From Klebsiella phage N1M2: 64,000 nucleotides of DNA. Location of the stretch: the sequence record MN642089.1; one strand, 5' to 3'. A program made the translations under genes and the position numbers. Shown here one piece after another: positions 6,704 through 41,570 of the stretch. The notes under the pieces were generated by a model, which was not told the origin of the DNA, made no database searches, and worked only from the letters and a program-made list of their open reading frames with translations. Positions within the stretch are counted from its first letter, which is position 1; each line of letters begins with the position of its first letter.

Positions 6704-6733
6704 TTCAGGTAGATATTATTAAAGTGAAGTTAG
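6704..6733 (+). promoter_or_regulatory. copy of conserved phage promoter-like motif (TTCAGGTAGATATTATTAAAGTGAAG)
   Basis: member of 9-copy family, ~75 nt upstream of ATG 6781. Confidence 0.5.
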
Positions 6734-6780
6734 TACCTTAATTTAAATTTGTTGTGTGTTAAACTTTTGAAGGATTTAAA

Positions 6781-7635
6781 ATGAAAACTATTTTAGCTAT
6801 TGTAATTATGCTGTTTTCTCTTTCTTCTTTTGCTGAGGTTGATTACAGTAAAGAAGCGATGGATGCTCGTTGTGGTGATGGCCAGGAAATGATCTATTGG
6901 AATAAGATCGCTAAGACAGGTGCCGAAGTTAAAGTGTGCTTGAATGGGGATATGGTTTCTGGTGGCTTCTATATGCCTGATGGTGATGATATGGTTTACA
7001 CCTCACCATTGATACTAACCCATGTTCAAGTAACCAAAGACTATGAAGCAGTGATCGTTCAGAACTTACCTATGGCTTTCCGCTTCCAGCATAAGTATGA
7101 TGGTCGTGCTGATTATGCATACTTATTCGACATGGGTACAGAATCTGAAAACTCCCGACCTGTTGCTCTGGATCCTACCTTAGCGTATTCTAATATCATT
7201 GGACTGCGTGAAGCTAAACGTGGAACCTTCAGTATCGACCCTGTAAAGCCTGTAGAGAAGAAAGTTAAGACTACCCAGGAGAATACTCAGATCAAAACTT
7301 CTGATGCGGTAGGTGATCGCTGTGCTCCTGGTGATATCGTATTCTACGGTAAAACTGTGAAGGGTAATAAAGAAGTACTGGTTTGTCGTTGGAATGATAA
7401 TGTCTTTTATCGCTTTGGTAAAATCGGTAAGAAACCAGATATGGATTTAAAAGAAGACATTTCTAATATTGGTGTTGCTAACGAACTGGTCAGCATTCCA
7501 AATGGAGATGTTTATTATCACACTGGTTATGAGGATGGGCGTGAAGTTCTGATTGTTTCCCGCGGTAAAGACACATTAGCAACGATCGATCTTGATCAAC
7601 GCAGTGTTGTAAATAATATCAAAGCTTTATTCTAA
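6781..7635 (+). CDS. secreted/periplasmic hypothetical protein with Sec signal peptide (MKTILAIVIMLFSLSSFA|EV)
   Basis: N-terminal hydrophobic h-region plus AxA-like cleavage site; GAAGGA SD; followed by strong terminator. Confidence 0.6.
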   Translation: MKTILAIVIMLFSLSSFAEVDYSKEAMDARCGDGQEMIYWNKIAKTGAEVKVCLNGDMVSGGFYMPDGDDMVYTSPLILTHVQVTKDYEAVIVQNLPMAFRFQHKYDGRADYAYLFDMGTESENSRPVALDPTLAYSNIIGLREAKRGTFSIDPVKPVEKKVKTTQENTQIKTSDAVGDRCAPGDIVFYGKTVKGNKEVLVCRWNDNVFYRFGKIGKKPDMDLKEDISNIGVANELVSIPNGDVYYHTGYEDGREVLIVSRGKDTLATIDLDQRSVVNNIKALF

Positions 7636-7643
7636 CATACTGA

Positions 7644-7672
7644 CTGAGTGTACCCTTAAAGGGTACACTCAG
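7644..7672 (+). terminator. rho-independent terminator CTGAGTGTACCCTT-aa-AGGGTACACTCAG followed by T-rich tract
   Basis: 14-bp perfect palindrome then CTTTATATTCTATTTTCTTTTTTGTTT. Confidence 0.75.
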
Positions 7673-7723
7673 CTTTATATTCTATTTTCTTTTTTGTTTC
7701 TGAGTTCATCTGCATTTCATTTT

Positions 7724-7751
7724 AAACCGATATTATTAACGTGAGTACTAC
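7724..7751 (+). promoter_or_regulatory. copy of conserved promoter-like motif (CCGATATTATTAACGTGAGTACTAC) plus TATAG box at 7773
   Basis: matches family consensus; 60 nt upstream of ATG 7790. Confidence 0.45.
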
Positions 7752-7789
7752 GAGTACAATTTTTATAATACTTATAGGGGATTATAACG

Positions 7790-8416
7790 ATGGATCGAAA
7801 GCAAGTTTTAGTTAATATGCTCAACAAAGATCGTGCAGAAACAGTTAAACTCCTTAAAGAAAGGAAAGCTTCCGGGAATCTAATTGTTAATCCAAAGAAA
7901 GACAATTTAGGTAATGGGAAGTGGAAACGTATCGGCATCGTTACAGCAATTGCTGGGATCGTCTTTTGTGTGGGTGCCATACTTTATAAGAAAAATCAGT
8001 TTGATGGGATCGTTTCCGATATCACCAAGTCTCGTCAAGACAGGGGTGAGGGGACTGGCGGTTCAGTTATTACTGAATCTTTAAATACCTTATCTGAAGG
8101 CGAAGGTATGAAAGCCGGGATAGATGATATAGTTTATTCCGGGATAAAGGGTTTAGCTGTAGGCTCTGCCGTTGGCCTGAGCGCTGCGCTAGCAAGCGAT
8201 GGTGTTCGTGAATTAATGGGTGATGTAAAGAATATTACCTATTCTGATATTAAAGACATCAATATTGAAATTGTGGAGCGTGAATTCAGTAAATACCGCA
8301 CTTACATTATCAATAAGTATCGTCAGTTATGTAAAGAAGATTTACCTACGTTTACCGAACTAGAAGAAGGTATTAAGAAGCTTTCTTCTAAACCTATCTT
8401 ATTCACTAATTTATAA
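7790..8416 (+). CDS. hypothetical membrane protein (one TM helix IGIVTAIAGIVFCVGAILY)
   Basis: ORF with SD; hydrophobic segment. Confidence 0.5.
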   Translation: MDRKQVLVNMLNKDRAETVKLLKERKASGNLIVNPKKDNLGNGKWKRIGIVTAIAGIVFCVGAILYKKNQFDGIVSDITKSRQDRGEGTGGSVITESLNTLSEGEGMKAGIDDIVYSGIKGLAVGSAVGLSAALASDGVRELMGDVKNITYSDIKDINIEIVEREFSKYRTYIINKYRQLCKEDLPTFTELEEGIKKLSSKPILFTNL

Positions 8417-8431
8417 TAGAGAGATTCAATT

Positions 8432-8827
8432 ATGTTTAAATCTATTTGGAAAACTATTGTTAATGCAATCAAGGTTGCTAAAGCATTCATTACTGGCAAT
8501 GTCTGTAAAAACATGTCTAGCCCAGTAGTTAACTCTCGCGAAGATATGATTGTTGTCAATAAAGGCGACAAGCTTAAACTTCTGCCATGGTTATTAGGTC
8601 TGTATCGTAATAATGATTTTGATTCTAGCTATGCGTATGGCAAAGAGTTGAAAAAGAGAATGAGCATCGATATTGCTAGTTGCATGGCCACTGGTGTAAT
8701 CTGGTTCGCTGGGATGATGTTTAACCTCCCATTTAATACTGTTATCTTTATCATCATTTATGCTGCTAACTTGGCAAGATTGATGGTTCGTAATATGAAA
8801 TTGGCTCAAGCTGCTATTGATGCTTAA
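8432..8827 (+). CDS. hypothetical membrane protein
   Basis: ORF with C-terminal hydrophobic segments. Confidence 0.5.
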   Translation: MFKSIWKTIVNAIKVAKAFITGNVCKNMSSPVVNSREDMIVVNKGDKLKLLPWLLGLYRNNDFDSSYAYGKELKKRMSIDIASCMATGVIWFAGMMFNLPFNTVIFIIIYAANLARLMVRNMKLAQAAIDA

Positions 8828-8906
8828 TTTCTATATTACACTAGGTACATGTAGTACAAGAAGGAAAGTTATATGAAGTATTAAAGTCCGCTATCACTAG
8901 ACGATA

Positions 8907-8933
8907 GCACAAACTAATATTATCAAACTTATT
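8907..8933 (+). promoter_or_regulatory. promoter-like motif copy (CACAAACTAATATTATCAAACTTATTG) inside 228-bp non-coding region
   Basis: ATATTATCAAA core identical to copy at 41550; no ORF start for ~120 nt. Confidence 0.35.
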
Positions 8934-9055
8934 GAGGAATCTAGAACCGGTTTACTAACTGGTAGAATATTTTATCTTTTTCTTATTTAGTATTTATGGA
9001 TTAATATCCATAAGGGTGTTAAGCTTTAAATATTAACCACTATCAAGGATCTTAA

Positions 9056-9331
9056 ATGAAAGCATTATCTTACATTATACTTATCGGGATTATTGTCCTC
9101 CTTTATTCCGTTATGTGGAACCCAGGAGAAAGTGAGACCAGGGTACTTGAAGATCAAGGTTTGACTGAGGTACATGTTGATACCTTGAGTTTCTTTGGTT
9201 GTCCTGATGATCAGTATGGTTACAAGTTCGAAGCCACCAACCAAGCCGGTAAGAATGTGAAAGGGGTGATGTGTAAAAAACGGTGTATTCTTCGGTTCTT
9301 GGAATATCCGTTACTTCTAACGATCCTTTGA
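9056..9331 (+). CDS. small membrane-anchored hypothetical protein
   Basis: N-terminal TM segment ILIGIIVLLYSVMW; 3' end uncertain (overlaps next gene). Confidence 0.35.
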   Translation: MKALSYIILIGIIVLLYSVMWNPGESETRVLEDQGLTEVHVDTLSFFGCPDDQYGYKFEATNQAGKNVKGVMCKKRCILRFLEYPLLLTIL

Positions 9332-9351
9332 CCCAAACAAAGGAGTTTATA

Positions 9352-9639
9352 ATGAAAAGATTAGGAGCACTTGCATTTGTAATAGCATTAACTTTACCTA
9401 CCGCAGCCATTGCTGAATTACACGGTTCTATCTTCTTTAGAGGAGAGATCGTAGAAGTCCCATGCTCTGGTGTCAATAATAACACCTCTGCATTGGTACA
9501 ATGTAATCGAAAAGGCGAAAGTCCTAAAACCTTGAATATCAATCTTACTTCTACCAAAGATCAGTATATCGATGGTGTTAAAGTAAATTCTGATAACATC
9601 GGTAAGGGACTGTATACTGTAACTTTAACCATCGCATAA
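9352..9639 (+). CDS. small secreted protein with fimbrial-subunit-like N-terminus (signal peptide MKRLGALAFVIALTLPTAAIA|ELHGSIFFRGEIVEVPCS)
   Basis: AAGGAG SD 7 nt upstream of ATG 9352; G-x-I-x-F-x-G-E-I-V-x-x-P-C pattern typical of chaperone-usher pilin N-termini but protein only ~75 aa mature. Confidence 0.4.
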   Translation: MKRLGALAFVIALTLPTAAIAELHGSIFFRGEIVEVPCSGVNNNTSALVQCNRKGESPKTLNINLTSTKDQYIDGVKVNSDNIGKGLYTVTLTIA

Positions 9640-9644
9640 ATCAA

Positions 9645-9677
9645 AGAGAGGCTTCCGAAAGGAGGTCTCTCTCTTTT
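9645..9677 (+). terminator. imperfect hairpin AGAGAGGCTTCC-gaaa-GGAGGTCTCTCT followed by TTTTT
   Basis: seen in sequence after stop at 9639. Confidence 0.55.
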
Positions 9678-9722
9678 TGTACCTGAACATAAATAAATTG
9701 AAATCACTTAAGGAGTATAGAA

Positions 9723-10124
9723 ATGAAAGTAACTGTAGATTTAACCGCACCTGAATCTCACCCTACCTCTAAATTACCTAAAGCTTTGCGTGAGTTCTGG
9801 TATTTCAAAGATGGTGAAGAACTTCGCCGTTTGATCGACTATACTGGTTGCCCTAATACCGGTTGCCAACATGCACTCCGTGTTTGGGGCGAGCGCGCTG
9901 ATGTTACTGCATGGTTGGATTTGTTCCAAGAAACCTATCCCGAAACAGAGCCAGAGATCATGCTGATTAAAAGTAAGATTCGTCTAGCTTTCGTGCACGG
10001 CACTGGTTTGAATAAGCTGGGTGGGTTGACTGTTGATCTTAAAACCATTACCCGTCAGGTTGGGTATAATGGCGAGATCCTGACCCGCCCTTACTTCTGG
10101 GCCCCATTCTGGGAAGAACGTTAA
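9723..10124 (+). CDS. hypothetical protein
   Basis: ORF with AAGGAG SD. Confidence 0.5.
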   Translation: MKVTVDLTAPESHPTSKLPKALREFWYFKDGEELRRLIDYTGCPNTGCQHALRVWGERADVTAWLDLFQETYPETEPEIMLIKSKIRLAFVHGTGLNKLGGLTVDLKTITRQVGYNGEILTRPYFWAPFWEER

Positions 10125-10125
10125 T

Positions 10126-10410
10126 ATGGAATTCTTAAAAGACTTCTGTAGTCTTCGCCATGGCGATATAATGGATAAAGGTATGTTCTACCTTATCGTG
10201 ATCGTATTTTTACTTATATTGGCATTACCATTTATTATCATACATGATAAGATGGAAATGACTGATGCAAATTGTATTAAGACCACTCAATCCAGAGAAA
10301 ACTCTCATATTCAGTTTATCTATGGTGACAAAGGTCAGATCATAAGTGCATACCCTGTCACCACAACTGAATATCTATATACCTGCGACGATTACCCAAG
10401 GTGGCGTTAA
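10126..10410 (+). CDS. hypothetical small membrane protein
   Basis: TM segment FYLIVIVFLLILALPFIII. Confidence 0.45.
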   Translation: MEFLKDFCSLRHGDIMDKGMFYLIVIVFLLILALPFIIIHDKMEMTDANCIKTTQSRENSHIQFIYGDKGQIISAYPVTTTEYLYTCDDYPRWR

Positions 10411-10411
10411 A

Positions 10412-10831
10412 GTGAAAAAGCAATTACATGTTAATGAAGTCATTGACAGACTTCGTGGTCCTGATGAGATTGTACCTGTTTCTATTAACTTTGAGGACGT
10501 CCTTAGTTATAAGGATTGTACTTATGGTGATGAAACTTCCATTGGTAAAACTTACATTAGGGTAATCAGCAGTGAACGTGGTTACTTAGTAACTGAAAAC
10601 TATAATACCGTAAGAAAGATGATGGAAGATCTTCGTTTAGAAGATCTGCGTCCTTGTTACCGTGTTAAGATCGGCTACCAGGTTCATTACGTTCCTAAGA
10701 ACGAAGTTGAACATATTGCCATTGATGAAGAGAACTCACATACAACTTTGATTCTCAAATCTGGCGATAAGATCAAGACTAATCAGACCATGATCGAACT
10801 TCGTGAATCCGCAATTGAAATCCCATTTTAA
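10412..10831 (+). CDS. hypothetical protein (GTG start after AGGTGG SD)
   Basis: six-frame ORF 10346..10831 trimmed to GTG at 10412 with good SD directly after upstream stop. Confidence 0.4.
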   Translation: MKKQLHVNEVIDRLRGPDEIVPVSINFEDVLSYKDCTYGDETSIGKTYIRVISSERGYLVTENYNTVRKMMEDLRLEDLRPCYRVKIGYQVHYVPKNEVEHIAIDEENSHTTLILKSGDKIKTNQTMIELRESAIEIPF

Positions 10832-10841
10832 AGGTTAAGAA

Positions 10842-11006
10842 ATGAAACAGACTAAAGGTGTTACTCGCCGAGATCTTATTGCTTTCTTCGCAGGTAGTGC
10901 CTTTAGTCCAAAGGCAAAGATCGAAGATTTAATAATTGATACCGTATTAGGTAAACAAGCTAGCACATTAATCAACTTTAGAAAGAGGTTCTTAAATGGA
11001 AAGTAA
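10842..11006 (+). CDS. small hypothetical ORF (54 aa)
   Basis: ATG with AAGGT SD filling otherwise non-coding gap; below ORF-track size cut-off. Confidence 0.3.
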   Translation: MKQTKGVTRRDLIAFFAGSAFSPKAKIEDLIIDTVLGKQASTLINFRKRFLNGK

Positions 11007-11766
11007 AAACAAAGACTGGTTCAAATACGATACTTACTGGCGCCAATGGTCCCGTGTAATTTGTCGTGGTGGTGGAAACTATGATCACGAGATCAGTATT
11101 CCGCTGACCCCTATTAATGATGAAGCAAGTGAATGGTCTCAACTGTCAGAGATCCGCATACACCGCTTCGATGTTCGTTATGCTGCATTCCGCGATAAGA
11201 ATAAGTACACTCACGTACTTCCTGATTCGGTGGTGGAGAAAATGAAGGCTAACTTATCTGCTAATAAAATAGAAGTCCTTCTTCATTCAAACATCCTTCC
11301 GTTAATCGATTGGGATAAGTACATCGAACTGGGTGATTCTGAAATGTCGATAATCCATTGTTCTATGGAACAGACAGGTTTCTTTAACCAGTTGTATGCT
11401 GGAAGTAATTCGAAGGAAACCTTCCCAACTGCGGAACAGTTTAAACGTGAGTATGGAATCCATATTCCGGAAGACCACATTCTCTTAGGTGGGATTTATC
11501 ACCAACATGGTGATGATCATGTACGTTGTCATGGTGTTCATGATCTAGCCAATAACACTATTTCTTTTGAAGTATTGTTGGATGGTAAAGATTATACTAT
11601 AGCAACTCGTTTCTCAGGTCGTTTGGGCGATATCGAATCAACCTGGGATATGAAGTTATTGAACTTTATGCAATCATCCCCCTATATCAAAATAGAAACT
11701 TTTGATGCAGTATTGCAGATGGTTGCTAAAACAAATAACAATCTCAACGTTTTCAAAAAGAACTAA
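10996..11766 (+). CDS. hypothetical protein (256 aa)
   Basis: ORF with AAGAGG SD. Confidence 0.5.
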   Translation: MESKNKDWFKYDTYWRQWSRVICRGGGNYDHEISIPLTPINDEASEWSQLSEIRIHRFDVRYAAFRDKNKYTHVLPDSVVEKMKANLSANKIEVLLHSNILPLIDWDKYIELGDSEMSIIHCSMEQTGFFNQLYAGSNSKETFPTAEQFKREYGIHIPEDHILLGGIYHQHGDDHVRCHGVHDLANNTISFEVLLDGKDYTIATRFSGRLGDIESTWDMKLLNFMQSSPYIKIETFDAVLQMVAKTNNNLNVFKKN

Positions 11767-11776
11767 GGAATTTAGA

Positions 11777-12196
11777 ATGCAACATTATTTCATGTCCTAC
11801 GGTATTCTGGTTAACTTTGGTGAAGACCACTTTATTCATCAGGCCGCTATCTTCCATAATAGCACCATCACCACTGATGAAATGGATCTGGGTTTCAACC
11901 TGAATACCAATCGTGTCTCACCTATGGAAGTTGAACATCAGATCAAAGAGATCTCTGAAGTAGTTGGTGATCGTAAACGTTCATCGATCTTTGATCCTGA
12001 GTCATGTGTCCGTAATCTGGACAACCTGAACTGGGCTGGGTTCACTTATATTCATAAAGAGCACGATCAAGATCAACCAGTCATCATGTTTATCAATGAT
12101 GATAAATACGTTGATCTCAGTAAGTGGAAAGAGATTTCTACTGAACGTGCTTTGGCAACCATTAACAAATTTGCAGAACCAAAGGAAGAAGAATAA
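11777..12196 (+). CDS. hypothetical protein
   Basis: ATG 11777 with AAGGA SD right after upstream stop; six-frame ORF extends to 11702. Confidence 0.45.
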   Translation: MQHYFMSYGILVNFGEDHFIHQAAIFHNSTITTDEMDLGFNLNTNRVSPMEVEHQIKEISEVVGDRKRSSIFDPESCVRNLDNLNWAGFTYIHKEHDQDQPVIMFINDDKYVDLSKWKEISTERALATINKFAEPKEEE

Positions 12197-12654
12197 TGGA
12201 ACTCAAATTCTTATTCGGTAATACACACTTAGTTAAAATCAATCATGACGATGTCAAAGAGAATGCTGAAATAAAACCAGCTATTCTTTTAACCCGTAAG
12301 GTTGATATTGTTCAACACTCTGATATGGCTAACCGTACTCAGTTCATGGGTGTGACTAATGGTGGATTCGTTCGTCGTTTCCGTAAACCATCTGGTTCTA
12401 TCTGGTATGGTGAATCAGTGTCATGCCGTGTCAGCACTGATGAATCCATGGAAAAGGTTTACCGTGCTTTGGTTGAGCAGAACAACTACTGGTATTTCGA
12501 ATTCGAAATGTACGGTGAAAAACACGCTATCTTTATGGCTTGTCCAGAAGGTTATTATCCATGCTCTATCATCTCTGGTATTGAATGGAAACCGTGTGAT
12601 CATAAAGAAATGTATGACATCATTTCAGTAGAAGACGAAGCCAACTGCTGGTAA
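12196..12654 (+). CDS. hypothetical protein (152 aa)
   Basis: TAATG overlap with upstream gene. Confidence 0.5.
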   Translation: MELKFLFGNTHLVKINHDDVKENAEIKPAILLTRKVDIVQHSDMANRTQFMGVTNGGFVRRFRKPSGSIWYGESVSCRVSTDESMEKVYRALVEQNNYWYFEFEMYGEKHAIFMACPEGYYPCSIISGIEWKPCDHKEMYDIISVEDEANCW

Positions 12655-12674
12655 AAATTAAATACATGCATAAT

Positions 12675-12704
12675 CCCTACCTAGCCTTTGCGGGCTAGGT
12701 AGGG
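12675..12704. terminator. bidirectional terminator hairpin CCCTACCTAGCC-TTTGCG-GGCTAGGTAGGG between convergent genes
   Basis: 12-bp perfect stem. Confidence 0.65.
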
Positions 12705-12724
12705 TTAATAATGTTTAATTATTT

Positions 12725-13330
12725 TTATGCTATCGCTTTCAAATCTTCAATGAAGAACATCAAGCCCTGGGTTGGATCGATGTTTATTGCTTCAACAGTA
12801 AACGTGCCTGAATGTTTACCAGTTGGATCAATGGCGTCTAGTTTATTGGTAACGATCTTATCCCAATAAATATTACCCATTATTTTCATTACACCATCTG
12901 GATTACCTTGCTCCGCTTCTGAAACAACACCATACTTATTGCTATCAGTTAACAGTACAATACCGGCTTGTTGTGTTCCGGCTTTAACTGCTGCGATCAG
13001 ATCGTCTACTTTAGCATACTCAGTGACAGTTACTGAGAATTCTTCTAAGATAGGTTTGATGGTTACTTTTTCAACTTCGATATCTGCACGGAAGAAACCA
13101 GTCTTACGAGAAAGGAAGCAACAACGGACAATGCCACTGTTGAAAGAAACCGGAGGTTCGATCATCACATCTTCGTGACGTAAACCATCATAACGTTGTT
13201 TGGCTAAGTCTAACTCTGCGCTTGGACCCGCTGCCTCTAGTTTAGCGATACGATCAACCATAAACTTTCGGGCAGACAGGAACACAGGGTCATTTATCTT
13301 TTTGCTATTGATACCTGAAACAGTGATCAT
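12725..13330 (-). CDS. hypothetical protein, paralog of CDS 1..706; lone minus-strand gene inside plus-strand block
   Basis: see alignment noted for feature 1..706. Confidence 0.55.
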   Translation of the reverse strand: MITVSGINSKKINDPVFLSARKFMVDRIAKLEAAGPSAELDLAKQRYDGLRHEDVMIEPPVSFNSGIVRCCFLSRKTGFFRADIEVEKVTIKPILEEFSVTVTEYAKVDDLIAAVKAGTQQAGIVLLTDSNKYGVVSEAEQGNPDGVMKIMGNIYWDKIVTNKLDAIDPTGKHSGTFTVEAINIDPTQGLMFFIEDLKAIA

Positions 13331-13394
13331 AATTGACTACCTATAAGGGGGAAAGTGTTAGAGTAATTACTCATTCCAAAAGATTCAAATAAAA

Positions 13395-13421
13395 ATAGAC
13401 AGATATTATCATTATGTACAG
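13395..13421 (+). promoter_or_regulatory. promoter-like motif copy (ATAGACAGATATTATCATTATGTACAG)
   Basis: family consensus, 55 nt upstream of ATG 13450. Confidence 0.5.
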
Positions 13422-13449
13422 TTAATAGTAATGTTAATAAGGAATCATT

Positions 13450-13905
13450 ATGACCCCACATGTTGGACCAGCCAGTATGCAAGAACATGAAACCGTAATA
13501 AAGGCTCTGTACGGTTCTATTGAAAAGATGCGTGAACATCCAACCTATCTGGAAGTTGTCAATCGCATTGAGTATTTAGAACGACTTAAAATCGATCTCT
13601 TTAACTTACTAGAGGAAGAAAAAGGTAATGTCCGTTGGTATAAACCTATCTCCTATTTGTCTTCTAAAATAGCAGACTTTGCTTATAAGTATACCGTGGA
13701 TAAACCTATCTCTGAAATCATCCATAAACTTAAAGCTCAGAAAGGGTTACCTGTGGGATTCGTAGTCGGTGAGCTTATTGAAGAAATGAATAAAGCTTTG
13801 TGCGTTATTCAGGACATGATCAAACACCGCAATAAACAATACTTCATTAACGACGACGTATATTTAAAAGAGGCTATTAAATGGAAAGAATCACAAAAAC
13901 GCTAA
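13450..13905 (+). CDS. hypothetical protein
   Basis: ORF. Confidence 0.5.
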   Translation: MTPHVGPASMQEHETVIKALYGSIEKMREHPTYLEVVNRIEYLERLKIDLFNLLEEEKGNVRWYKPISYLSSKIADFAYKYTVDKPISEIIHKLKAQKGLPVGFVVGELIEEMNKALCVIQDMIKHRNKQYFINDDVYLKEAIKWKESQKR

Positions 13906-14285
13906 ATCATGGTCAGTATTACTATGAGTTAGCCAATGAATCATTTAAAGGTCTATCCAAAGAAATCGAAGATGGGTATGCTTACCTTTCTCGTTTATTT
14001 GGGTGGAAACTTTATCTCACCTGGAATGGCGTTAAGACTGCATTGATCCTAGCAAGGGTTAAAGGTTTTATCACCGAAGCAGGTAAGATGTTTGATGATC
14101 CAGAATCTGTAGTGGAGTATTCTTATTATGAAGACATGATCGAAATGGTGCGTGAGTACGACGATCTGTTAAATGAATACAAATCTGACATCATCAAACT
14201 TTTCGACATGGCTTACGATGATCGCAATGTTGATTCTGAAACCCGCTTTAAAGCACATACCTGGGGCGGTCGTGTCCTTAACTAA
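13881..14285 (+). CDS. hypothetical protein
   Basis: ORF with AAGAGG SD, overlaps upstream gene by 25 nt. Confidence 0.5.
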   Translation: MERITKTLNHGQYYYELANESFKGLSKEIEDGYAYLSRLFGWKLYLTWNGVKTALILARVKGFITEAGKMFDDPESVVEYSYYEDMIEMVREYDDLLNEYKSDIIKLFDMAYDDRNVDSETRFKAHTWGGRVLN

Positions 14286-14296
14286 TAGGTGTAAAT

Positions 14297-14824
14297 ATGA
14301 ATACAGTATTCTGGTCCGATGGTCACGTGGATCACCTTCCTGCGGTTAAACAACGTGGCTTTGAAACTATCGAAGCATTTCAAGAGTATTACGCTGATAC
14401 TTGGTGTTCAACTGTCACTAAACGCACTAAGATTTTCTGCGTTGGTGATATGGCATTGACCCATCAAGGTTTGGTGTTCCTTAAGAAGCTTCCTGGTTAT
14501 AAACACCTTATCCTGGGGAACCATGATAAAGAACGTCAAAATGATATTCGGGATCTGATGGAAGTATTTGATGATATCGATGGTTTCTATAAACATAAGA
14601 AATCTCCGTTATACATCGCACACTGCCCTTCACACCCGTCCCAGTTACGTGGTCGTTTGATGGTACATGGACATACCCACATGCAAGTAATTCCTGACGA
14701 ACGTTACATTAACGTGTGTTTTGATTTGCTTCCTAACGGTCCTGTATCTATTGAAGATATTGTATCTGGTAAATATCGTTCATATAGGAAACCTGAAAAT
14801 GTTATCCAAACTGCAACGGCTTGA
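14297..14824 (+). CDS. calcineurin-like metallophosphoesterase
   Basis: motifs SDGHVDH, ILGNHD, VHGHTH (GDxH / GNHD / GHTH signature). Confidence 0.7.
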   Translation: MNTVFWSDGHVDHLPAVKQRGFETIEAFQEYYADTWCSTVTKRTKIFCVGDMALTHQGLVFLKKLPGYKHLILGNHDKERQNDIRDLMEVFDDIDGFYKHKKSPLYIAHCPSHPSQLRGRLMVHGHTHMQVIPDERYINVCFDLLPNGPVSIEDIVSGKYRSYRKPENVIQTATA

Positions 14825-15026
14825 TAAGTTTCTGGATACCGCATTTAAAATTATCTTTACAGTCAATGTAGTGCTGCTCGGGCTAAATTTATTTTGGCCC
14901 AAGGAAACTGCTCGCAATACCATCTTAATACTTTTACCAACTCTCGTGATCATCATGACGATACAAGCTGTATTAGGCTTTATCATCTCCAAGAAGAAGC
15001 GGAGGAGAACTTGGAAAGAACGTTAA
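14799..15026 (+). CDS. small hypothetical membrane protein
   Basis: two hydrophobic segments; weak SD; overlaps upstream gene. Confidence 0.3.
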   Translation: MLSKLQRLDKFLDTAFKIIFTVNVVLLGLNLFWPKETARNTILILLPTLVIIMTIQAVLGFIISKKKRRRTWKER

Positions 15027-15247
15027 AGTTAACCTTCTTCATCATCTTGCTGATATTAACATTCGTTATCTTTAACGGTGTTGTCTTGCATTGTTATGGT
15101 GAAGAGTTTGACAAAGACTTATATAACTTCATTTGGAAGTTTAATCTTTGTTTGTCTTTATTCTTGGCGTACATCACGTACGCCTTCTTTAATATGTTAA
15201 TCGACTATCGTTACCCAACTGGAACTGAAGATGAAGACTTTGAATAA
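15011..15247 (+). CDS. small hypothetical membrane protein (possible TTG start after GGAGGAG)
   Basis: hydrophobic ORF; start uncertain. Confidence 0.25.
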   Translation: MERTLKLTFFIILLILTFVIFNGVVLHCYGEEFDKDLYNFIWKFNLCLSLFLAYITYAFFNMLIDYRYPTGTEDEDFE

Positions 15248-16421
15248 ATATGAAGCCTGGTATATGGAACAGCTCAATAACATTATTGAGAACGGTCAGC
15301 GTCGTGGAGACCGTACAGGTACTGGTGTTATTTCATTACCTGATTTGGAATATCGTCATGATCTCCGTGAATCCTATCCGGTAACTTTCTCTCGTTGGTT
15401 TAACCTGCAGTTCCCTATCATCGAGATTCTCTGGATGATGTCTGGTGAATCAAACATCCAACGTCTGAAAGAAAATGGCTGTCCATTCTGGAATGGCTTT
15501 GCGGTTAAAGGTGACAAGATCGCACCAACCGAGCTTTCCATTACTGAGCGTCTGAAACTGCTGGCTAAAAAGCAGGGTGTCCCTTATGGTAAGGTTCTTC
15601 AAATCTTCGGTAGTGAGCGTCCTGAAGATATTACCATCGAACTGGACAAACAGCAGATTCCTAACACCCAGGATATGCTGATTGCTAAAGACGGTGATCT
15701 TGGTCCGGTGTACGGTGTTCAATGGCGACATTGGCCTAATCCGGATGGGACTACTTTCGATCAGCTGGTTTATGTATTGGAAACCCTCCGTAAAGATCCT
15801 GACAGCCGTCGTGTGGTCGTTGACTGTTGGAACCCAAGCTATCTACCTGATCCTAAGAAGAGTCCTGCAGAGAACGCTGTAGACGGTAAAATGGCATTGA
15901 CTCCTTGTCACTTCACTTTCGGTTTCTATACTTGGGAAATTCCTTTCCATGAACGTGTAGAAGAACTGAAGAAAGTTTGTAGTCGTCAGGAATGGATGTC
16001 AGTTTATCCAATCTATAAAGGTAGTGAGACAATGTTGAAGATCGATCACTTGATCGAGAAATACAATGTCCCTAAATACTATCTGGACCTTAAATACGTC
16101 ATGCGTAGTAATGACTGGATCTTGGGTCAACCGGCTAACATGAACATGTACTCTGCCATGTTGATGATGTTTGCGAAAGAACTGAATATGGTTCCTCGCT
16201 ATGTCAAATACACTGGTTGGGATGCGCATGTTTATACCAACCACCTGGAAGGCGCTGAAGAACTGAATAAACGTTGGGCTGAGAAGACTCACAAGTTCTC
16301 AACAATCAAGATGGATCTGGATACAGAACCAAAAGGTTTGTTCGGTTACCACCAAGATGACTTTAAGATCATCGGTAAGTATGAACCTATGGATCGTATT
16401 AAGTTCCCTATCGCCATCTAA
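15231..16421 (+). CDS. thyA: thymidylate synthase family enzyme (ThyA-like) with two large insertions; dUMP-specific by retained Asn177 equivalent
   Basis: GDRTGTG, GDLGPVYGVQWRHWPNPDG, DPDSRRVVVDCWNP, MALTPCHFTFGFY (catalytic Cys), RSNDWILGQPANMN, C-terminal PIAI; 396 aa vs ~264 aa for E. coli ThyA. Confidence 0.85.
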   Translation: MKTLNKYEAWYMEQLNNIIENGQRRGDRTGTGVISLPDLEYRHDLRESYPVTFSRWFNLQFPIIEILWMMSGESNIQRLKENGCPFWNGFAVKGDKIAPTELSITERLKLLAKKQGVPYGKVLQIFGSERPEDITIELDKQQIPNTQDMLIAKDGDLGPVYGVQWRHWPNPDGTTFDQLVYVLETLRKDPDSRRVVVDCWNPSYLPDPKKSPAENAVDGKMALTPCHFTFGFYTWEIPFHERVEELKKVCSRQEWMSVYPIYKGSETMLKIDHLIEKYNVPKYYLDLKYVMRSNDWILGQPANMNMYSAMLMMFAKELNMVPRYVKYTGWDAHVYTNHLEGAEELNKRWAEKTHKFSTIKMDLDTEPKGLFGYHQDDFKIIGKYEPMDRIKFPIAI

Positions 16422-16500
16422 ATAAACCAAGCTAGGGGCTCTTAGGAGCCTTTAGCTTTTCAAGGTATACGTTTACCTACCCTACAAATAGGAAATCGTT

Positions 16501-16725
16501 ATGAACTTACCACAATGGGTTATAGAGGTTAATCAACATGCATTCCTGATAATGATCAGTTTCTCTTTCGCATTATCGTTCTTCTTCTGTTTTTCTGATC
16601 TCCATAAGTACACCAAGTTGAAATACATTGTTATCGACTTCGTGGGTTATGGGGTAATCTCAATCGGATCTATTATTGTCGTCTACACTCTGGTGATGAC
16701 CACTTTAATGAATCATTATTTATAA
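16501..16725 (+). CDS. small hypothetical membrane protein
   Basis: two TM segments. Confidence 0.4.
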   Translation: MNLPQWVIEVNQHAFLIMISFSFALSFFFCFSDLHKYTKLKYIVIDFVGYGVISIGSIIVVYTLVMTTLMNHYL

Positions 16726-16735
16726 GGAATCAAAA

Positions 16736-17635
16736 ATGAAAAACGTTAACATTCAAATCAATTCTTTCGTTGGCGTAGCATCAATCCAAACCATGATCCG
16801 CCATGTAGGTACTGTAACTAAACAAAAGGTTCTTGAAGATTGTATTATCGATGGGATGGTCGGAACCAATACCTTTAATGCCCTTAACTTCATTGCTGGT
16901 TATGTGTTCGGCACTCGCCCGCATGTTCCACAAGGCATCGTTGGATTGGAAGATGGCATTCTCTCCGTCCAACGTTGGTATGAGGGAGTTAGAACTTCAA
17001 TGCCGCCACATCGCCAATCAGTATGGCCTCGTTTGGAATGTGATGGTGTTTGGGGAACCGATACATATATCGCATTTTCCAATATGGCCAATTTATATTG
17101 CGAATTGTTCATTGCTGCAAAATCTAAATCTGAAGGATTCGGATTAAGACGTCGTGATCCTTCCCGTCCATTTATTGATGGTCGTCCTATTGACTTAAAA
17201 CCTACCCAGCCAGAAATCTCTCTATCTCCAAGAGAGACAGTTCAGATGACCGGTCAGGAAGATGACCCAGAAACTCTCCAGGCTCTTGCTAACGCTATGG
17301 GTTGGGATAATCCAGTGATTACCCCTGCTCAACTGTTAGCTTCTCAGAATGGGTTTGAGGCGTTAATCACACGTCATGCTGGGACTAAAGAAACCCTGGG
17401 TATTCTTGTATACATGAAGCCTAGTCGTTTATCTCGTTTATATGACTTCAATATTGTTGGGTTATATGTGCGTGAAGGTTGTCGTGATGCCAGTATCGGA
17501 ACTTCTTTAGTTGGTCGTCTTAAAACAATTGCCGCCAATCAAGATAGTGATGTGAGTTTTACCCTTGCGAGTGTAGCAAGTAAATCTTCTCGCGTTGCTC
17601 AGTTCTTGAGCGGTATGAAGATCAATATGAAGTAA
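16736..17635 (+). CDS. protein with two PG_binding_1-like repeats (IDGMVGTNTFNAL, CDGVWGTDTYIAF) and C-terminal domain of unknown function (weak GNAT-like motif)
   Basis: D-G-x-x-G-x-x-T repeats; C-terminal VREGCRDASIGTSLVGRL resembles acetyl-CoA binding loop. Confidence 0.4.
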   Translation: MKNVNIQINSFVGVASIQTMIRHVGTVTKQKVLEDCIIDGMVGTNTFNALNFIAGYVFGTRPHVPQGIVGLEDGILSVQRWYEGVRTSMPPHRQSVWPRLECDGVWGTDTYIAFSNMANLYCELFIAAKSKSEGFGLRRRDPSRPFIDGRPIDLKPTQPEISLSPRETVQMTGQEDDPETLQALANAMGWDNPVITPAQLLASQNGFEALITRHAGTKETLGILVYMKPSRLSRLYDFNIVGLYVREGCRDASIGTSLVGRLKTIAANQDSDVSFTLASVASKSSRVAQFLSGMKINMK

Positions 17636-17643
17636 ACCAATAA

Positions 17644-17671
17644 CCCTCTATTCCTTAACGGGAATAGAGGG
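17644..17671 (+). terminator. hairpin CCCTCTATTCC-ttaac-GGGAATAGAGGG
   Basis: 11-bp perfect stem after stop 17635. Confidence 0.65.
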
Positions 17672-17694
17672 GTTGGATTTCAGTTGTATTTCTT

Positions 17695-17725
17695 TTCAGA
17701 CATATATAATTAAAGTGTATAAGAC
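17695..17725 (+). promoter_or_regulatory. promoter-like motif copy (TTCAGACATATATAATTAAAGTGTATAAGAC) with TATAG box at 17758
   Basis: ~85-nt block near-identical to 23895-23978. Confidence 0.55.
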
Positions 17726-17775
17726 AATAAAGTTTTATACAACTTACACTAATCAACTTATAGAGAGATACAATC

Positions 17776-18126
17776 ATGGCTAACAACTTCGCAAACGTAG
17801 AACACTTCGCTGACCGTAACGTAGATGGTCTGGCATACATGAAAGATGTACTGGCTAACGTTATGGGTGCTAACACCAAATCTGAGAAAGCTGAAGAATT
17901 CGGTAGCTTCTCTATGGCTGCTATCAAAGCTATCGGCCGTAAAGCTTTTGGTGCTATCCCACTGTTCCGTACCAAACCACAGGTTAATGGCATCATGACC
18001 TTCCAGGTTTTCTTCAACGACTTCGCTGAAGCTAACAACCTGAACATCCGTCTGCGCACTACCGGTGTATGGGACGAAGCAACTCTCAATGCCTTCACCA
18101 TGATGGTAGAGAAATACAAAGCGTAA
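17776..18126 (+). CDS. hypothetical protein (116 aa)
   Basis: ORF behind conserved leader. Confidence 0.55.
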   Translation: MANNFANVEHFADRNVDGLAYMKDVLANVMGANTKSEKAEEFGSFSMAAIKAIGRKAFGAIPLFRTKPQVNGIMTFQVFFNDFAEANNLNIRLRTTGVWDEATLNAFTMMVEKYKA

Positions 18127-18132
18127 TAATCG

Positions 18133-18173
18133 GCATCAACAGTATGGGGAATTTATCCTTGTACTGTTGATGC
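18133..18173 (+). terminator. hairpin GCATCAACAGTA-(17 nt loop)-TACTGTTGATGC
   Basis: 12-bp perfect stem after stop. Confidence 0.5.
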
Positions 18174-18212
18174 TATATTTAGTTAAACACTTTATTTTTG
18201 TCTGGAGAAATA

Positions 18213-18860
18213 ATGTCACCTAAATTAGTATTGGCGTTCGACATGGACGACACTCTTGTAGATACTTATGGTTTTATTTACAACCACATGTTGCAGTTCT
18301 ATACTGACCGTGGTATGGAAACCGAATTAAATTATATCATGGATATGCACGCCAAAGGTTTTAGTAGCTTAAGCTGGCGTAAAGATGAATCTGACGATGT
18401 GTTCTATCAGATCATCAAGAAACATACTTATATGGTTGATGCTAAACCAACCATGTTGCTCTCCAATGACTTCATCTCTATCTGTAATCGACTGATTGAA
18501 AGATATAAAGATGACGTTCAGTTTGTTATTTGTACACATCGTGGTTTTACAAGCCATGGGCAACCATTAACTGAAGAGTGGTTAGAGAAGTTTGAAGTCG
18601 ATCATATCTTCAAAACTGTTCATGCCCTGGATCGTAAAGAACATGCTAACAAAGTAGCGTTCTTGAAAGAACAATATCCTGGGTCTGAAATCCGTTTAGT
18701 TGACGATAACCCAATGCATGATGGTGAAACTGTTCATCCTTATATGCCTGAGTTAGTTATCTATGATAAGATTACTGCGTTACCGGGTTATGCTAATCAG
18801 CGTAAGTGGACCGGTAATCTTTCTTTCTTTAATATGTGCTACCAAATCCTTAAGGACTAA
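18213..18860 (+). CDS. HAD-superfamily phosphatase, probable 5'(3')-deoxyribonucleotidase
   Basis: HAD motif I LVLAFDMDDTLVD; ATG 18213 with GGAG SD (six-frame ORF starts at TTG 18198). Confidence 0.6.
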   Translation: MSPKLVLAFDMDDTLVDTYGFIYNHMLQFYTDRGMETELNYIMDMHAKGFSSLSWRKDESDDVFYQIIKKHTYMVDAKPTMLLSNDFISICNRLIERYKDDVQFVICTHRGFTSHGQPLTEEWLEKFEVDHIFKTVHALDRKEHANKVAFLKEQYPGSEIRLVDDNPMHDGETVHPYMPELVIYDKITALPGYANQRKWTGNLSFFNMCYQILKD

Positions 18861-18862
18861 TC

Positions 18863-19486
18863 ATGAATATTTCTACTACTTCTAAACTTTCTTCATTCAT
18901 CCACTATACCACTTACTCTATGATCGTTGCTGTTGACGAAGCGGGTGGTATCGGCATTGATAATAAATTACCTTGGCCTAAGTGCAAGGAAGATATGCAG
19001 TGGTTCCGTTCTCAGACTTTGGGTAAAATCATCGTCATGGGTCGTAAGACTTTTGAATCGATCGGATCCAAACCTCTCCCTGGTCGTATCAACATTGTTA
19101 TTGGTTCCAAACTGGAACCAGAAGTAGCTCGTACTTTTAATAAAGAAAATGAAGGTAACAAAGACGCAGGGTATCTGATGTTTGTTCCTTCTGTTTCTAA
19201 AGCTAAAGAAATGATTTCAATGACCGCTGGTACACTTCACAATGGTGGTGAAGTAATGGTCATCGGTGGTGCTTCCATTTATGAGGCATTCTGGAACGAC
19301 ATTGGTCGAGTCTACCTTACTACTTTCAAGGATACCTTTAATACTGACGTTAAGATCCACATGAATCTAAATCAATTTGAATTGGTTTATCGAGATGACC
19401 GTTCAGTGTTGGGTCCTAAGTTTGAAATCTATGATGCTCAACAAACCTTCCGTGTTGAACGTAAAGACACTTCCCGTTTTGCTTAA
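18863..19486 (+). CDS. folA: dihydrofolate reductase
   Basis: MIVAVDEAGGIGIDNKLPW...MGRKTFESIG..PLPGRINIVI typical DHFR N-terminal signature. Confidence 0.85.
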   Translation: MNISTTSKLSSFIHYTTYSMIVAVDEAGGIGIDNKLPWPKCKEDMQWFRSQTLGKIIVMGRKTFESIGSKPLPGRINIVIGSKLEPEVARTFNKENEGNKDAGYLMFVPSVSKAKEMISMTAGTLHNGGEVMVIGGASIYEAFWNDIGRVYLTTFKDTFNTDVKIHMNLNQFELVYRDDRSVLGPKFEIYDAQQTFRVERKDTSRFA

Positions 19487-19502
19487 TTGAGAGATAAAGT
19501 AA

Positions 19503-19757: not shown

Positions 19758-19766
19758 CAACTAATA

Positions 19767-19790
19767 AAGGGGATGGGTAACTATCCCCTT
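19767..19790 (+). terminator. hairpin AAGGGGAT-gggtaact-ATCCCCTT
   Basis: 8-bp stem after stop. Confidence 0.45.
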
Positions 19791-19802
19791 AGGAGTAATG
19801 TC

Positions 19803-29930: not shown

Positions 29931-29963
29931 ATTGCAACCTTTTAGCTATAATGAAACATATTT

Positions 29964-39646: not shown

Positions 39647-40122
39647 TGGAACAGCAAATTAGTTACGATCCGATTGTTCAGTTGATCAGTTATGTAGCTG
39701 AAGAGTTACATCAGGAAATCGTTATTAACCAGGATAGTTCTGAGTTCTGGAAAAAGGCTCAGGATTATATCTTTGACAATAGCGTAGCTTCTGTACGTGA
39801 AGGCATAAACAACTTATCTGAAGGTATCGGTGAATCACCAGACCTTTATAGTTATCTTAGTAGTTTGGTCTTCAGGACTTTCTCCCAACCTTTCACAGCT
39901 CCTGCCCTTGAAAGTTTCTCAAAAGGGTTTGATATGGTAGCTGGCGATGCTTTCTTCCGTGATGGCTTTGGTTTCAAAGCTAGTGAGATGACCAAGGTAG
40001 AACAACTACTATTGTTCATTACCGTTCATCGTAATCACATTCAGCTTGCCTTTATGGAAGCAGAAGAGGAAGCAGAGAAACAGCGTATTGAAGAAGCTCT
40101 ACGGCAAAGAAAAAGGCAATAA
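39646..40122 (+). CDS. hypothetical protein
   Basis: ORF, TAATG overlap. Confidence 0.5.
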   Translation: MEQQISYDPIVQLISYVAEELHQEIVINQDSSEFWKKAQDYIFDNSVASVREGINNLSEGIGESPDLYSYLSSLVFRTFSQPFTAPALESFSKGFDMVAGDAFFRDGFGFKASEMTKVEQLLLFITVHRNHIQLAFMEAEEEAEKQRIEEALRQRKRQ

Positions 40123-40128
40123 CCGACG

Positions 40129-40857
40129 ATGAACATTGAAGTCTATACCGAAATGGATTCGTTGTTTGACGCTCGCCGTGGCATCATTATTAAATGTGCT
40201 TTGGAATCTGGCAATAAACGTTTCGACTGGAACAGGAACTTTAAAGAGATCTATGCTCGACGTCGATTCGATTACTTTCATCAACCTGAATTAGGTATTA
40301 CTGATGAAGGGTTTAAAGCCCGGTATGCTCAGCGGTCCATAGCTGACTTTGCTGATGAAACACAAGCATACATCATTCCAAGTAATCTCATATACAACAT
40401 CTTTAAGATAGTACGTGAGATTGAGTTCGGTGTAGGTCAGATCATCTCAGTGTCTAAGTTTAACTTAACGGTTAATCTGTATCCTTATGTATTGACTCAA
40501 GATCTGACTGACGAACTAGCATCTGTAATCCGTGGAGCGGTTCCGTTTAACATTGGTCTATCCTTTGTAAACATACCGTATGAAAATTTAACTCCTGCGG
40601 TTTTACACGCTTATCAGTATTGCTTCATTTATGACTTCCTGACTGGTGAACATCGTAAAGCATATTGGGAAAATTATGTCCCAGCTGCAAATACGAATAC
40701 CAAGTTCATAGTTCCAGATGTAATACTGAATAAGGAACTTCCAGAAGAAATGAGAAGCGAAAAGCCTATCGATCTAATTGGAAAAATGAATGCTACTCAA
40801 GGTGGTAAAATAACCTGGGTCCCATACTCAAAAACCATATTCGATTATAAAGAATAA
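40129..40857 (+). CDS. hypothetical protein
   Basis: ORF. Confidence 0.5.
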   Translation: MNIEVYTEMDSLFDARRGIIIKCALESGNKRFDWNRNFKEIYARRRFDYFHQPELGITDEGFKARYAQRSIADFADETQAYIIPSNLIYNIFKIVREIEFGVGQIISVSKFNLTVNLYPYVLTQDLTDELASVIRGAVPFNIGLSFVNIPYENLTPAVLHAYQYCFIYDFLTGEHRKAYWENYVPAANTNTKFIVPDVILNKELPEEMRSEKPIDLIGKMNATQGGKITWVPYSKTIFDYKE

Positions 40858-40863
40858 GGTCAC

Positions 40864-40890
40864 CCTAGGAGCCCCGCAAGGGCTCCTAGG
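40864..40890. terminator. hairpin CCTAGGAGCCC-cgcaa-GGGCTCCTAGG between convergent genes
   Basis: 11-bp perfect stem. Confidence 0.65.
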
Positions 40891-40905
40891 AGTGTTTGTT
40901 GTCTA

Positions 40906-41508
40906 TTAAGATTCTGGATCGAATTCTTCATCGTCATCTTCAGGAGCTTCGGTTGTATTTACCGTTACTTCCATATCGTCGTCGTCAAAGGTAGATTCAA
41001 TCTCCTTAGCGTTAACGATCTGACGACCTTGGTACAGTTCGTCTTCTTTGATCTCGTCATCTGGATCTTCTATACGGATAATAGGAGCCAATGGATCAAG
41101 TACGAATGCCTGATTACCATAAGTTGGAATCACAAGCTTGCCTGCAGCTACTTCATTAAGAGCGTTAACGAAGGTTGCAAAGTTAGCTCGGTTGTCTTCC
41201 AATTCTCTGTCCTTGAGTCTCTCTTTGCGATCGTCACGAACGGTCTTCTCAAGTTGAGCAAGAATGGTATTGATGGAATCCAACAGTTTAGGGTTGTTAG
41301 GTTTATTAATAAAAGTCTGAGTAGCGATATCTAACAACAGGGTACGTTGCTTCTGAATAATACCAACTAACTCATTCTCAGCTTCTTTGCTCTGAGGACC
41401 TTTAAGAACCTTATTGATTTCAGCAATCAAAGCGTCCTTATCGGTTACGGTTTTCAATTTCTCATCAGACGGCGGGGCCGGATGAATTTCATCATCATGG
41501 TCAAACAT
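40906..41508 (-). CDS. hypothetical acidic protein
   Basis: ORF with GGAG SD; Asp/Glu-rich termini. Confidence 0.5.
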   Translation of the reverse strand: MFDHDDEIHPAPPSDEKLKTVTDKDALIAEINKVLKGPQSKEAENELVGIIQKQRTLLLDIATQTFINKPNNPKLLDSINTILAQLEKTVRDDRKERLKDRELEDNRANFATFVNALNEVAAGKLVIPTYGNQAFVLDPLAPIIRIEDPDDEIKEDELYQGRQIVNAKEIESTFDDDDMEVTVNTTEAPEDDDEEFDPES

Positions 41509-41540
41509 AATTACTCCATATTCTTTAGCGACTATTATAT

Positions 41541-41570
41541 TTCAAACAAATATTATCAAAGTAGATACGG
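41541..41570 (+). promoter_or_regulatory. promoter-like motif copy (TTCAAACAAATATTATCAAAGTAGATACGG) with TATAG box at ~41595
   Basis: family consensus. Confidence 0.5.

Follow-up and report, generated by a model that had tools for sequence, protein, structure and literature searches.

Eight copies of a long, AT-rich, directional motif (TTGTAT..TTTCAgAC..ATATTAT..aGTG) lie in a 64,000-nucleotide (nt) stretch of the genome of Klebsiella phage N1M2 (record MN642089.1; hereafter, the window), and these eight elements are very probably early-class promoters of an OBP-like, nucleus-forming jumbo phage. The motif is sequence-specific, restricted to one strand and to intergenic DNA, conserved in position over five phages, and matches a published consensus, and RNA polymerase genes are present.

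The initial annotation of this DNA had proposed nine copies, of which eight were borne out, while the ninth, at 8907 (core 8917), failed an independent-matrix test. The nine reported copies were aligned on the ATATTAT core, and a first matrix was scored in leave-one-out fashion. Seven sites then scored 22–29.5 bits, the site with its core at 13403 scored 12.0, and that at 8917 scored 9.4, next to 9.3 for the best unrelated position in the window. Because a matrix built from the nine sites is circular, we relied on an independent 38-nt matrix trained on 19 sites of the Serratia phage vB_SmaM-Yubaba, having removed 7 of its 26 sites as orthologous to sites in the window. This matrix returned exactly eight matches in the window (22.3–41.0 bits), all on the plus strand, with cores at 6713, 7730, 13403, 17704, 19926, 23915, 25555, and 41550. 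The next best score in 128 kb (either strand) was -0.9, and 200 dinucleotide-preserving shuffles gave a mean of 0.17 matches at ≥10 bits. Site 13403 is taken as a real member of the family, since the Yubaba-trained matrix recovers it at 24.2 bits. The rejected copy (8895–8932, plus strand) retains only the ATATTAT core, is missing the TTTCA and GTG blocks, and is unsupported as a member; it was not among the independent-matrix matches listed (down to -4.0), and there is no plus-strand start codon within ~140 nt of it. It is located in a segment (8828–9722) with no convincing gene, where open reading frames (ORFs) overlap on both strands, and a small hairpin with a T-rich tail (8946–8963) follows 16 nt after its core.

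All eight genuine sites are outside real genes, on the plus strand, and ahead of plus-strand genes. Two of them overlap ORFs of a mechanical ORF map, although neither ORF is annotated in Yubaba; by the same map, intergenic DNA makes up 6.5% of the window. The distance from core to ATG is 46–72 nt. The coordinates first reported differ from the actual motif starts by a few bases at most, and the claimed spacing from plus-strand start codons was roughly right (motif start 55–81 nt upstream), as was the claim that the motif is absent from the junctions at 29930/29964, 35119/35137, and 53247/53278.

The blocks of the motif were defined from the 26 sites of Yubaba, alongside which the nine copies reported in the window were aligned. 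The upstream block is TTGTAT-like and weak, with a near-invariant A 16 nt ahead of the core. A TTTCAgAC block stands directly 5' of the ATATTAT core, and this is followed by (A)GTG, whose last G, 13 nt past the core start, is the most informative single column (2.1 bits). Among the eight copies, the (A)GTG element is replaced by GTAG in two and by ATG in one, and the ATG variant also occurs at several Yubaba sites. These sites align block for block with two published consensus sequences. A potential promoter of N1M2, TBYAWWWWWTTTCARRYAKATATTATYWAAGTGWA, has been reported at 31 locations, and the OBP consensus, BSHAWWWWWTTTYARRYAKATATTATYWWADTG, has been tabulated beside the motifs of 201phi2-1, EL, and phiKZ (TATATTAC) (PMC7058600). 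The OBP promoter was judged early and phage-specific (Cornelissen et al. 2012, as quoted in PMC7058600). An exact-consensus scan of IMG/VR returned five contigs of 149–277 kb, four of them above 230 kb and one the size of pEt-SU.

Mapped promoters in related phages provide the functional frame. The early promoters of phiKZ and 201phi2-1 have been mapped experimentally, start transcription ~10 nt downstream of an AT-rich core, have additional conserved sequence near -20 and -30, and have been assigned to the virion RNA polymerase (PMC7598289, PMC8244752, PMC11512511). According to a review of jumbo phages, every such phage with these polymerases carries a motif of this kind upstream of presumed early operons, and wherever transcripts have been profiled, the motif is an early promoter that must be recognized by the virion polymerase (PMC7598289). 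Given the match to the OBP and N1M2 consensus and this review, the initial interpretation appears right in substance, and the motif belongs to a known promoter family. In particular, comparison with OBP and N1M2 and with the mapped early promoters of phiKZ and 201phi2-1 argues for a single temporal class, recognized by a multisubunit RNA polymerase of the phage itself, as had been proposed; where the class had been left as early or middle, the published promoters favor early and speak against middle.

We therefore read each promoter as a directional signal of ~38 bp, to which start position, timing, and polymerase are assigned by homology with phages of the phiKZ clade. The last G of the conserved (A)GTG would be the transcription start (+1), which would place ATATTAT at -13 to -7, TTTCAgAC at about -22 to -15, and the TTGTAT-like block ~30–33 nt ahead of the start. 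Since the last G of GTG was taken as +1, by analogy with the AT-rich element ~10 nt ahead of the mapped phiKZ and 201phi2-1 starts, the predicted starts are 6726, 7743, 13416, 17717, 19939, 23928, 25568, and 41563, with predicted 5' untranslated regions (5'UTRs) of ~32–59 nt. By homology with phiKZ and 201phi2-1, a multisubunit RNA polymerase carried in the virion and injected along with the DNA would recognize the motif without host sigma factors; the polymerase reading the motif is thus likely to be the virion enzyme. It would then transcribe rightward operons encoding small unknown proteins and enzymes of nucleotide metabolism, and strong hairpins ahead of several promoters would end the preceding transcription units.

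The genomic setting is in keeping with a phage of this kind. The window has a G+C content of 40.7%, and among database records it is closest to the Serratia jumbo phages vB_SmaM-Yubaba and vB_SmaM-Sureiya (~79% identity across 83–86% of a 9-kb probe), with nucleotide identity to any phage record searched reaching ~79% at most. More distant synteny was found with Pseudomonas phage OBP, Edwardsiella phage pEt-SU, Kosakonia phage Kc263, and others. Database taxonomy places OBP, pEt-SU, Yubaba, and Sureiya in the genus Petsuvirus, which belongs to the Chimalliviridae (nucleus-forming, phiKZ-related phages). The window follows the gene order of OBP, in which a leftward nrdB precedes small rightward genes, followed by thymidylate synthase, DHFR, Clp-like, GroEL, and thymidine kinase genes, and finally by virion genes. 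By these sequence relationships, the window is assigned to an OBP-like nucleus-forming jumbo phage (Chimalliviridae, Petsuvirus-like).

The RNA polymerase genes that the initial annotation had placed in the window were found as two adjoining plus-strand beta-like genes of 538 and 1,446 amino acids (53278–54894 and 54894–59234), matching PHROG 2986 (E = 6e-206) and PHROG 3148 (E = 0), respectively. They give a weak Pfam Rpb2_6 match, under the curated cutoff, and the Yubaba annotation agrees with the assignment. Both lack the motif and adjoin head-maturation genes, including a prohead core protease by Yubaba annotation, and they may encode subunits of the virion polymerase that would read the motif. 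More beta and beta' genes are annotated at other loci of Yubaba. The window comes from a phiKZ-related phage with split multisubunit RNA polymerases. A search of the window for known RNA families and tRNAs found none.

Conservation across relatives is extensive. For seven of the eight sites, Yubaba, Sureiya, OBP, and pEt-SU each carry a copy at the corresponding syntenic position, and at sites 6713, 19926, and 25555, the motif blocks were kept while the flanks diverged. Across the complete Yubaba genome there are 26 sites, each of them on the plus strand and ahead of a gene. Its leftward genes (nrdB, helicases, DNA polymerase, terminase, tail sheath, and several virion proteins) have no early-motif site. 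One Yubaba site immediately precedes an RNA polymerase beta gene (226570) located outside the virion-gene cluster, as would fit the non-virion enzyme being made early. Within the window, promoters 1, 3, and 8 (numbered in genome order) are in divergent gaps, whereas terminator-like hairpins (-17 to -28 kcal/mol) stand between the previous stop codon and promoters 2, 4, 5, and 7. Promoter 6 is within 5 nt of the previous stop codon and has no terminator. The genes downstream encode small proteins of unknown function and a Clp-like protease and, by annotation of relatives, thymidylate synthase, DHFR, a GroEL-like protein, and thymidine kinase, which we take to be typical early functions.

Promoter 1 (GGTTCCAAATCTTTTCAGGTAGATATTATTAAAGTGAA; 6691–6728, plus strand) is the strongest match (41.0 bits; predicted start near G6726). 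It heads gene 6781–7635 from the divergent gap beside an nrdB-like gene (5344–6489, minus strand), and its position is kept in Yubaba, Sureiya, OBP, and pEt-SU, with diverged flanks. In the same gap, ~46 nt upstream of the promoter, is a perfect 15-bp palindrome (GATTACGTAGTAATC, followed by ATCCT; 6653–6667, plus strand), which is kept in Yubaba (103920), where a second copy (189711) precedes another gene. The pEt-SU version (6785) reads GTTTACGTAGTAAAC, a symmetric double change that preserves the palindrome. The palindrome resembles the target of a dimeric DNA-binding protein, or else a small hairpin. Promoter 2 (7708–7745, plus strand; 34.1 bits; predicted start near G7743) heads genes 7790–8416 and 8432–8827 and follows a hairpin at 7644–7672 (-22.6 kcal/mol). 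It is without a Yubaba ortholog because the segment is not shared: across ~6781–9700, the genes of the window differ in size from those of Yubaba at the same place. A little further downstream (9645–12654), eight rightward genes follow a strong hairpin with a T tract (9645–9672) and have no early motif of their own; they must be reached by read-through or by an unrecognized promoter class.

Promoter 3 (13381–13418, plus strand; 24.2 bits; predicted start near G13416) is the ATG-for-GTG variant and heads an operon (13450–17635) that includes a thymidylate synthase homolog. The region from approximately -45 to +10 is conserved in Yubaba and Sureiya apart from one T/C change, and same-position sites occur in OBP and pEt-SU. 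Promoter 4 (17682–17719, plus strand; 39.5 bits; predicted start near G17717) heads gene 17776–18126, and the hairpin upstream of it (17644–17671) shows a compensatory T-A to C-G change in Yubaba. Promoter 5 (19904–19941, plus strand; 26.2 bits; predicted start near 19939) is a GTAG variant that heads a Clp-protease-like gene (start ~19971; Clp Pfam match), a GroEL-like gene (21086–22645, annotated as GroEL chaperonin in OBP and pEt-SU), and a thymidine kinase cluster. Orthologous sites were found in four relatives, and its hairpin is ~115 nt upstream, just past the stop codon.

Promoter 6 (23893–23930, plus strand; 34.5 bits; predicted start near G23928) heads gene 23979–24326, and the promoter and 5'UTR are almost invariant in Yubaba and Sureiya. 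Promoters 4 and 6 are similar along the whole leader (17682–17775 and 23893–23978), down to TATAGAGAGA, while the 116- and 115-amino acid proteins encoded after them have no detectable similarity to each other. Leader 4 opens with a stable 9-bp hairpin (17717–17740; z = -2.8). A shared 5'UTR stem-loop was considered and rejected, as only two of the eight predicted leaders beat shuffles (17717, z = -2.8; 7743, z = -1.9), with the rest at -0.9 to +1.0. Promoter 7 (25533–25570, plus strand; 28.0 bits; predicted start near G25568) has orthologs, follows a hairpin at 25500–25529 (-23.9 kcal/mol), and heads operon 25617–27906. Promoter 8 (41528–41565, plus strand; 22.3 bits; predicted start near 41563), the other GTAG variant, heads genes 41618–43757 from the divergent gap beside 40906–41508 (minus strand), with orthologs in OBP and pEt-SU. 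This gap and both flanking gene starts (~41480–41660) differ from Yubaba and Sureiya at 3 of 180 aligned nt, compared with ~79% identity in the surrounding genome, and the leader is largely kept in OBP, including AGAT..ATCT and TATAGTCT(T/C)GAGG.

Several points weigh against early promoters of the virion polymerase as the full account. Timing, start, and polymerase are carried over from phiKZ-clade phages, whose core (TATATTAC) differs. Promoter 6 may add to read-through rather than start an isolated unit. Moreover, genes 9723–12654 follow a hairpin without the motif, and the motif is thus not accounting for all rightward transcription. Alternative identities for the motif were also weighed. 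A middle-class promoter, or one served by the phage's non-virion polymerase, is improbable. Middle promoters do drive some presumably early genes of 201phi2-1 (PMC11512511), but the known middle (phiKZ AAanTTACc, or TACT at approximately -22) and late (TATG at +1) motifs are short, weak, and unlike the window motif (PMC4666361, PMC8244752), whereas in all profiled phages of the group, early promoters are distinguished by a long AT-rich "-10" motif (PMC7598289). Furthermore, the Yubaba RNA polymerase beta gene at 226570 has the motif, and if its product is a non-virion subunit, it would be needed before the non-virion enzyme exists.

A host sigma-70 promoter variant, with TTGTAT as the -35 element and TATTAT as the -10, is harder still to credit, although TATTAT is a good -10 hexamer, recalling TATAAT at predicted positions -12 to -7, a TTGTAT-like block stands upstream in several copies, and site 13403 was flagged as TTCAAA-17-TATCAT. 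The spacer between TTGTAT and TATTAT is 15 nt, outside the 16–18 nt of sigma-70 promoters, so that the window sites have no -35 element at the appropriate distance. They carry instead extra conserved blocks, of which TTTCAgAC and GTG, the best conserved besides the core, have no sigma-70 role. In addition, Yubaba sites are confined to one strand, and the published biology of the family is independent of the host polymerase. Sigma-70-like matches in 6400–26300 were depleted (41 versus 61 ± 7 in shuffles), and only 13403 of the eight sites coincides with one, in agreement with the initial view that the motif does not resemble a sigma-70 pair. Least probable of all is an operator for a DNA-binding regulator in place of a polymerase recognition site: some copies have a nearly palindromic center (AGATA-T-TATCT), yielding weak minus-strand scores, but these are a minority, the full motif is strongly asymmetric, and it is strictly co-oriented with downstream genes, at a fairly constant 46–72 nt from the start codon and behind terminator-like hairpins. 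Early-class promoters remain by far the preferred interpretation.

A second element, TATAG, had been described downstream of the motif in at least six cases. It is present in five of the eight regions, one of the five being TATAGT, and its geometry differs from that first given: it lies 16–21 nt before the ATG (mean 17.8, standard deviation [SD] 1.9) rather than 18–23 nt, and its distance from the core, claimed to be near-constant at ~44 nt, is 43–55 nt (SD 4.7), with 36–55 nt (SD 5.6) in Yubaba. As the distance to the ATG is the less variable of the two (SD 1.9 versus 4.7), TATAG keeps its position relative to the start codon rather than the promoter; the distance to the ATG in Yubaba is 13–21 nt (SD 2.3). 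The five copies, all on the plus strand, are at 7773–7777 (directly 5' of a purine-rich Shine-Dalgarno region, 17 nt before ATG 7790), 17759–17763 (followed by AGAGA, 17 nt before ATG 17776), 23963–23967 (AGAGA, 16 nt before ATG 23979), 25599–25603 (AAGGA, 18 nt before ATG 25617; TGTAG in Yubaba and Sureiya), and 41597–41601 (TCTTGAGG, 21 nt before ATG 41618; conserved in OBP). Two minus-strand copies precede genes with no early motif: 13341–13345, 15 nt before gene 12725–13330 and also present in the OBP ortholog, and 29946–29950, 20 nt before gene 28599–29930, which is a virion structural protein gene by annotation of relatives and where the element is conserved in Yubaba and pEt-SU.

TATAG is enriched close to start codons. 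At -26 to -12, it was found at seven genes in the window, compared with 0.6 expected from the genome-wide rate and 1.95 ± 1.36 in local upstream shuffles. In Yubaba, the corresponding count was 22, versus 2.3 expected and 7.4 ± 2.8 shuffled, and none of 1,000 shuffles reached 22. There, TATAG precedes 10 of 23 motif-bearing genes and 12 of 239 others (P = 1e-6). Duplicated genes were rejected as the cause, with no paralogs found among TATAG-bearing genes at an E threshold of 1e-4. The element is followed or overlapped by AGGA, GAGG, or AGAGA (purine-rich Shine-Dalgarno sequences), and a search for a longer motif around it found nothing conserved past these downstream purines. A second position, at -7 between the Shine-Dalgarno sequence and the ATG ((A)GGA(A/G)TATAGAAATG), was found at window gene 9723 (9710–9725) and at least five Yubaba genes. 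Genome-wide, the observed/expected ratio of TATAG is 1.07–1.14, and this lack of avoidance counts against a minimal promoter, for which avoidance would be expected. TATAG is also replaced by TGTAG or CATAG in some orthologs.

Hence, TATAG is probably not part of the promoter, and we lean toward TATAG(R) being part of the ribosome-binding region. It has a fixed, short distance to the ATG (13–21 nt, SD ~2), is contiguous with purines, and precedes genes with and without the motif, including the 12 Yubaba genes that lack it. It would represent the AU-rich 5' edge of a strong ribosome-binding site, favored in the first genes of early operons. Calibration on a 49-kb segment of phiKZ (NC_004629, 95000–144000) led us to this reading. 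There, ATAGG was the top pentamer at -24 to -12 (9 versus 0.5 expected), with AATAG also among the most enriched, and at gp119, ATAGG is downstream of the TATG at -50, the published P119L start motif, and hence inside the 5'UTR (PMC4666361). TATG itself was found ~17–65 nt (mostly 48–65 nt) before the ATG in 8 of the 12 genes displayed, with no peak at -13 to -21; only P119L (-50) is published as a start, the others being occurrences of the motif. An (A/T)ATAG-purine ribosome-binding context seems to be common to Chimalliviridae with different hosts. In both the window and Yubaba, TTTTT was the most enriched pentamer at -24 to -12.

Two observations sit less easily with ribosome binding: the bias of TATAG to motif-bearing genes is not fully explained by a generic role of this kind, and ATAG itself does not pair with the anti-Shine-Dalgarno sequence. 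Alternatively, TATAG could mark the start site for the non-virion polymerase, as a five-base counterpart of the phiKZ TATG(+1), such that tandem early and late promoters would give continuous expression, although we consider this unlikely. Like the phiKZ late promoter, which is read by the non-virion polymerase (PMC4666361, PMC12809450), TATAG is very short, reads T-A-T-(A)-G, and stands ahead of genes, and its G could be the start (PMC4666361). Dual promoters are already known from AR9 and from phiKZ gene 054 (PMC7598289, PMC8244752), TATAG is kept in the short divergent gap before 28599–29930 (minus strand) in the window, Yubaba, and pEt-SU, and it is enriched ~3–10 fold. However, it is locked to the Shine-Dalgarno sequence and ATG (13–21 nt), whereas phiKZ TATG is mostly further upstream, without a peak at that distance, and the phiKZ ATAGG lies inside the mapped gp119 5'UTR. 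Most structural genes of the window and of Yubaba (including the Yubaba major capsid, tail sheath, and terminase genes) have no TATAG ahead of them, and the peak at -7, past the Shine-Dalgarno sequence, does not make sense if the element marks a start. The lack of genome-wide avoidance and the TGTAG/CATAG replacements in orthologs count against this reading as well. When a common late-promoter motif was sought upstream of 130 Yubaba genes without the early motif, only T runs, AT-rich words, and Shine-Dalgarno-like words were enriched. It is similarly doubtful that TATAG(R) is a class-specific signal on the early-operon leaders of the OBP clade, acting either as a non-virion start element or as a site for a phage factor controlling translation or decay of early mRNA; if true, this would explain its approximately nine times higher frequency before motif-bearing genes than before others.

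Apart from these elements, all T runs of ≥8 in the window (TTATTTTTTT...; 22695, 24367, 42620, and 43807) are intergenic and on the plus strand. They lie ~12–17 nt downstream of a strong GC-rich hairpin, and three of the four are just ahead of the next start codon. They are not canonical intrinsic terminators, because the gap between hairpin and T run is too long, and may represent a termination signal of the phage polymerases or a U-rich leader.

If the eight sites are early promoters, they define predicted early transcription units spanning ~6.7–27.9 kb and 41.5–43.8 kb of the window, which take in genes for nucleotide metabolism, Clp-like and GroEL-like genes, and those of many small proteins of unknown function. 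Their significance is mainly for annotation, in that a published promoter family is extended by eight sites of an OBP-like genome. Since promoter sequence and positions are conserved across Pseudomonas, Edwardsiella, and Serratia phages, the motif should be a reliable marker for predicting early genes in the clade.

The elements are most similar to the predicted promoters of OBP and N1M2, with which they have A-WWWWW-TTTYARRYAK-ATATTAT-YWWAGTG in common, as well as intergenic positions at the heads of operons. Copy numbers are likewise in the tens per genome (31 in N1M2; 26 found in Yubaba), and promoter positions in OBP are syntenic with the window sites. The GTAG (two of eight) and ATG (one of eight) variants at the predicted start set the window sites apart, with no functional difference evident. 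The early promoters of phiKZ and 201phi2-1 also have an extended AT-rich element near -10 and T-rich or conserved blocks near -20 and -30, are strongly conserved, and head early operons in phages with two split multisubunit RNA polymerases. The phiKZ core is TATATTAC, however, whereas that of the window is ATATTAT(C/T), and phiKZ-clade sites have been validated by 5' rapid amplification of cDNA ends, differential RNA sequencing, or cappable-seq, whereas OBP-clade sites are known from sequence.

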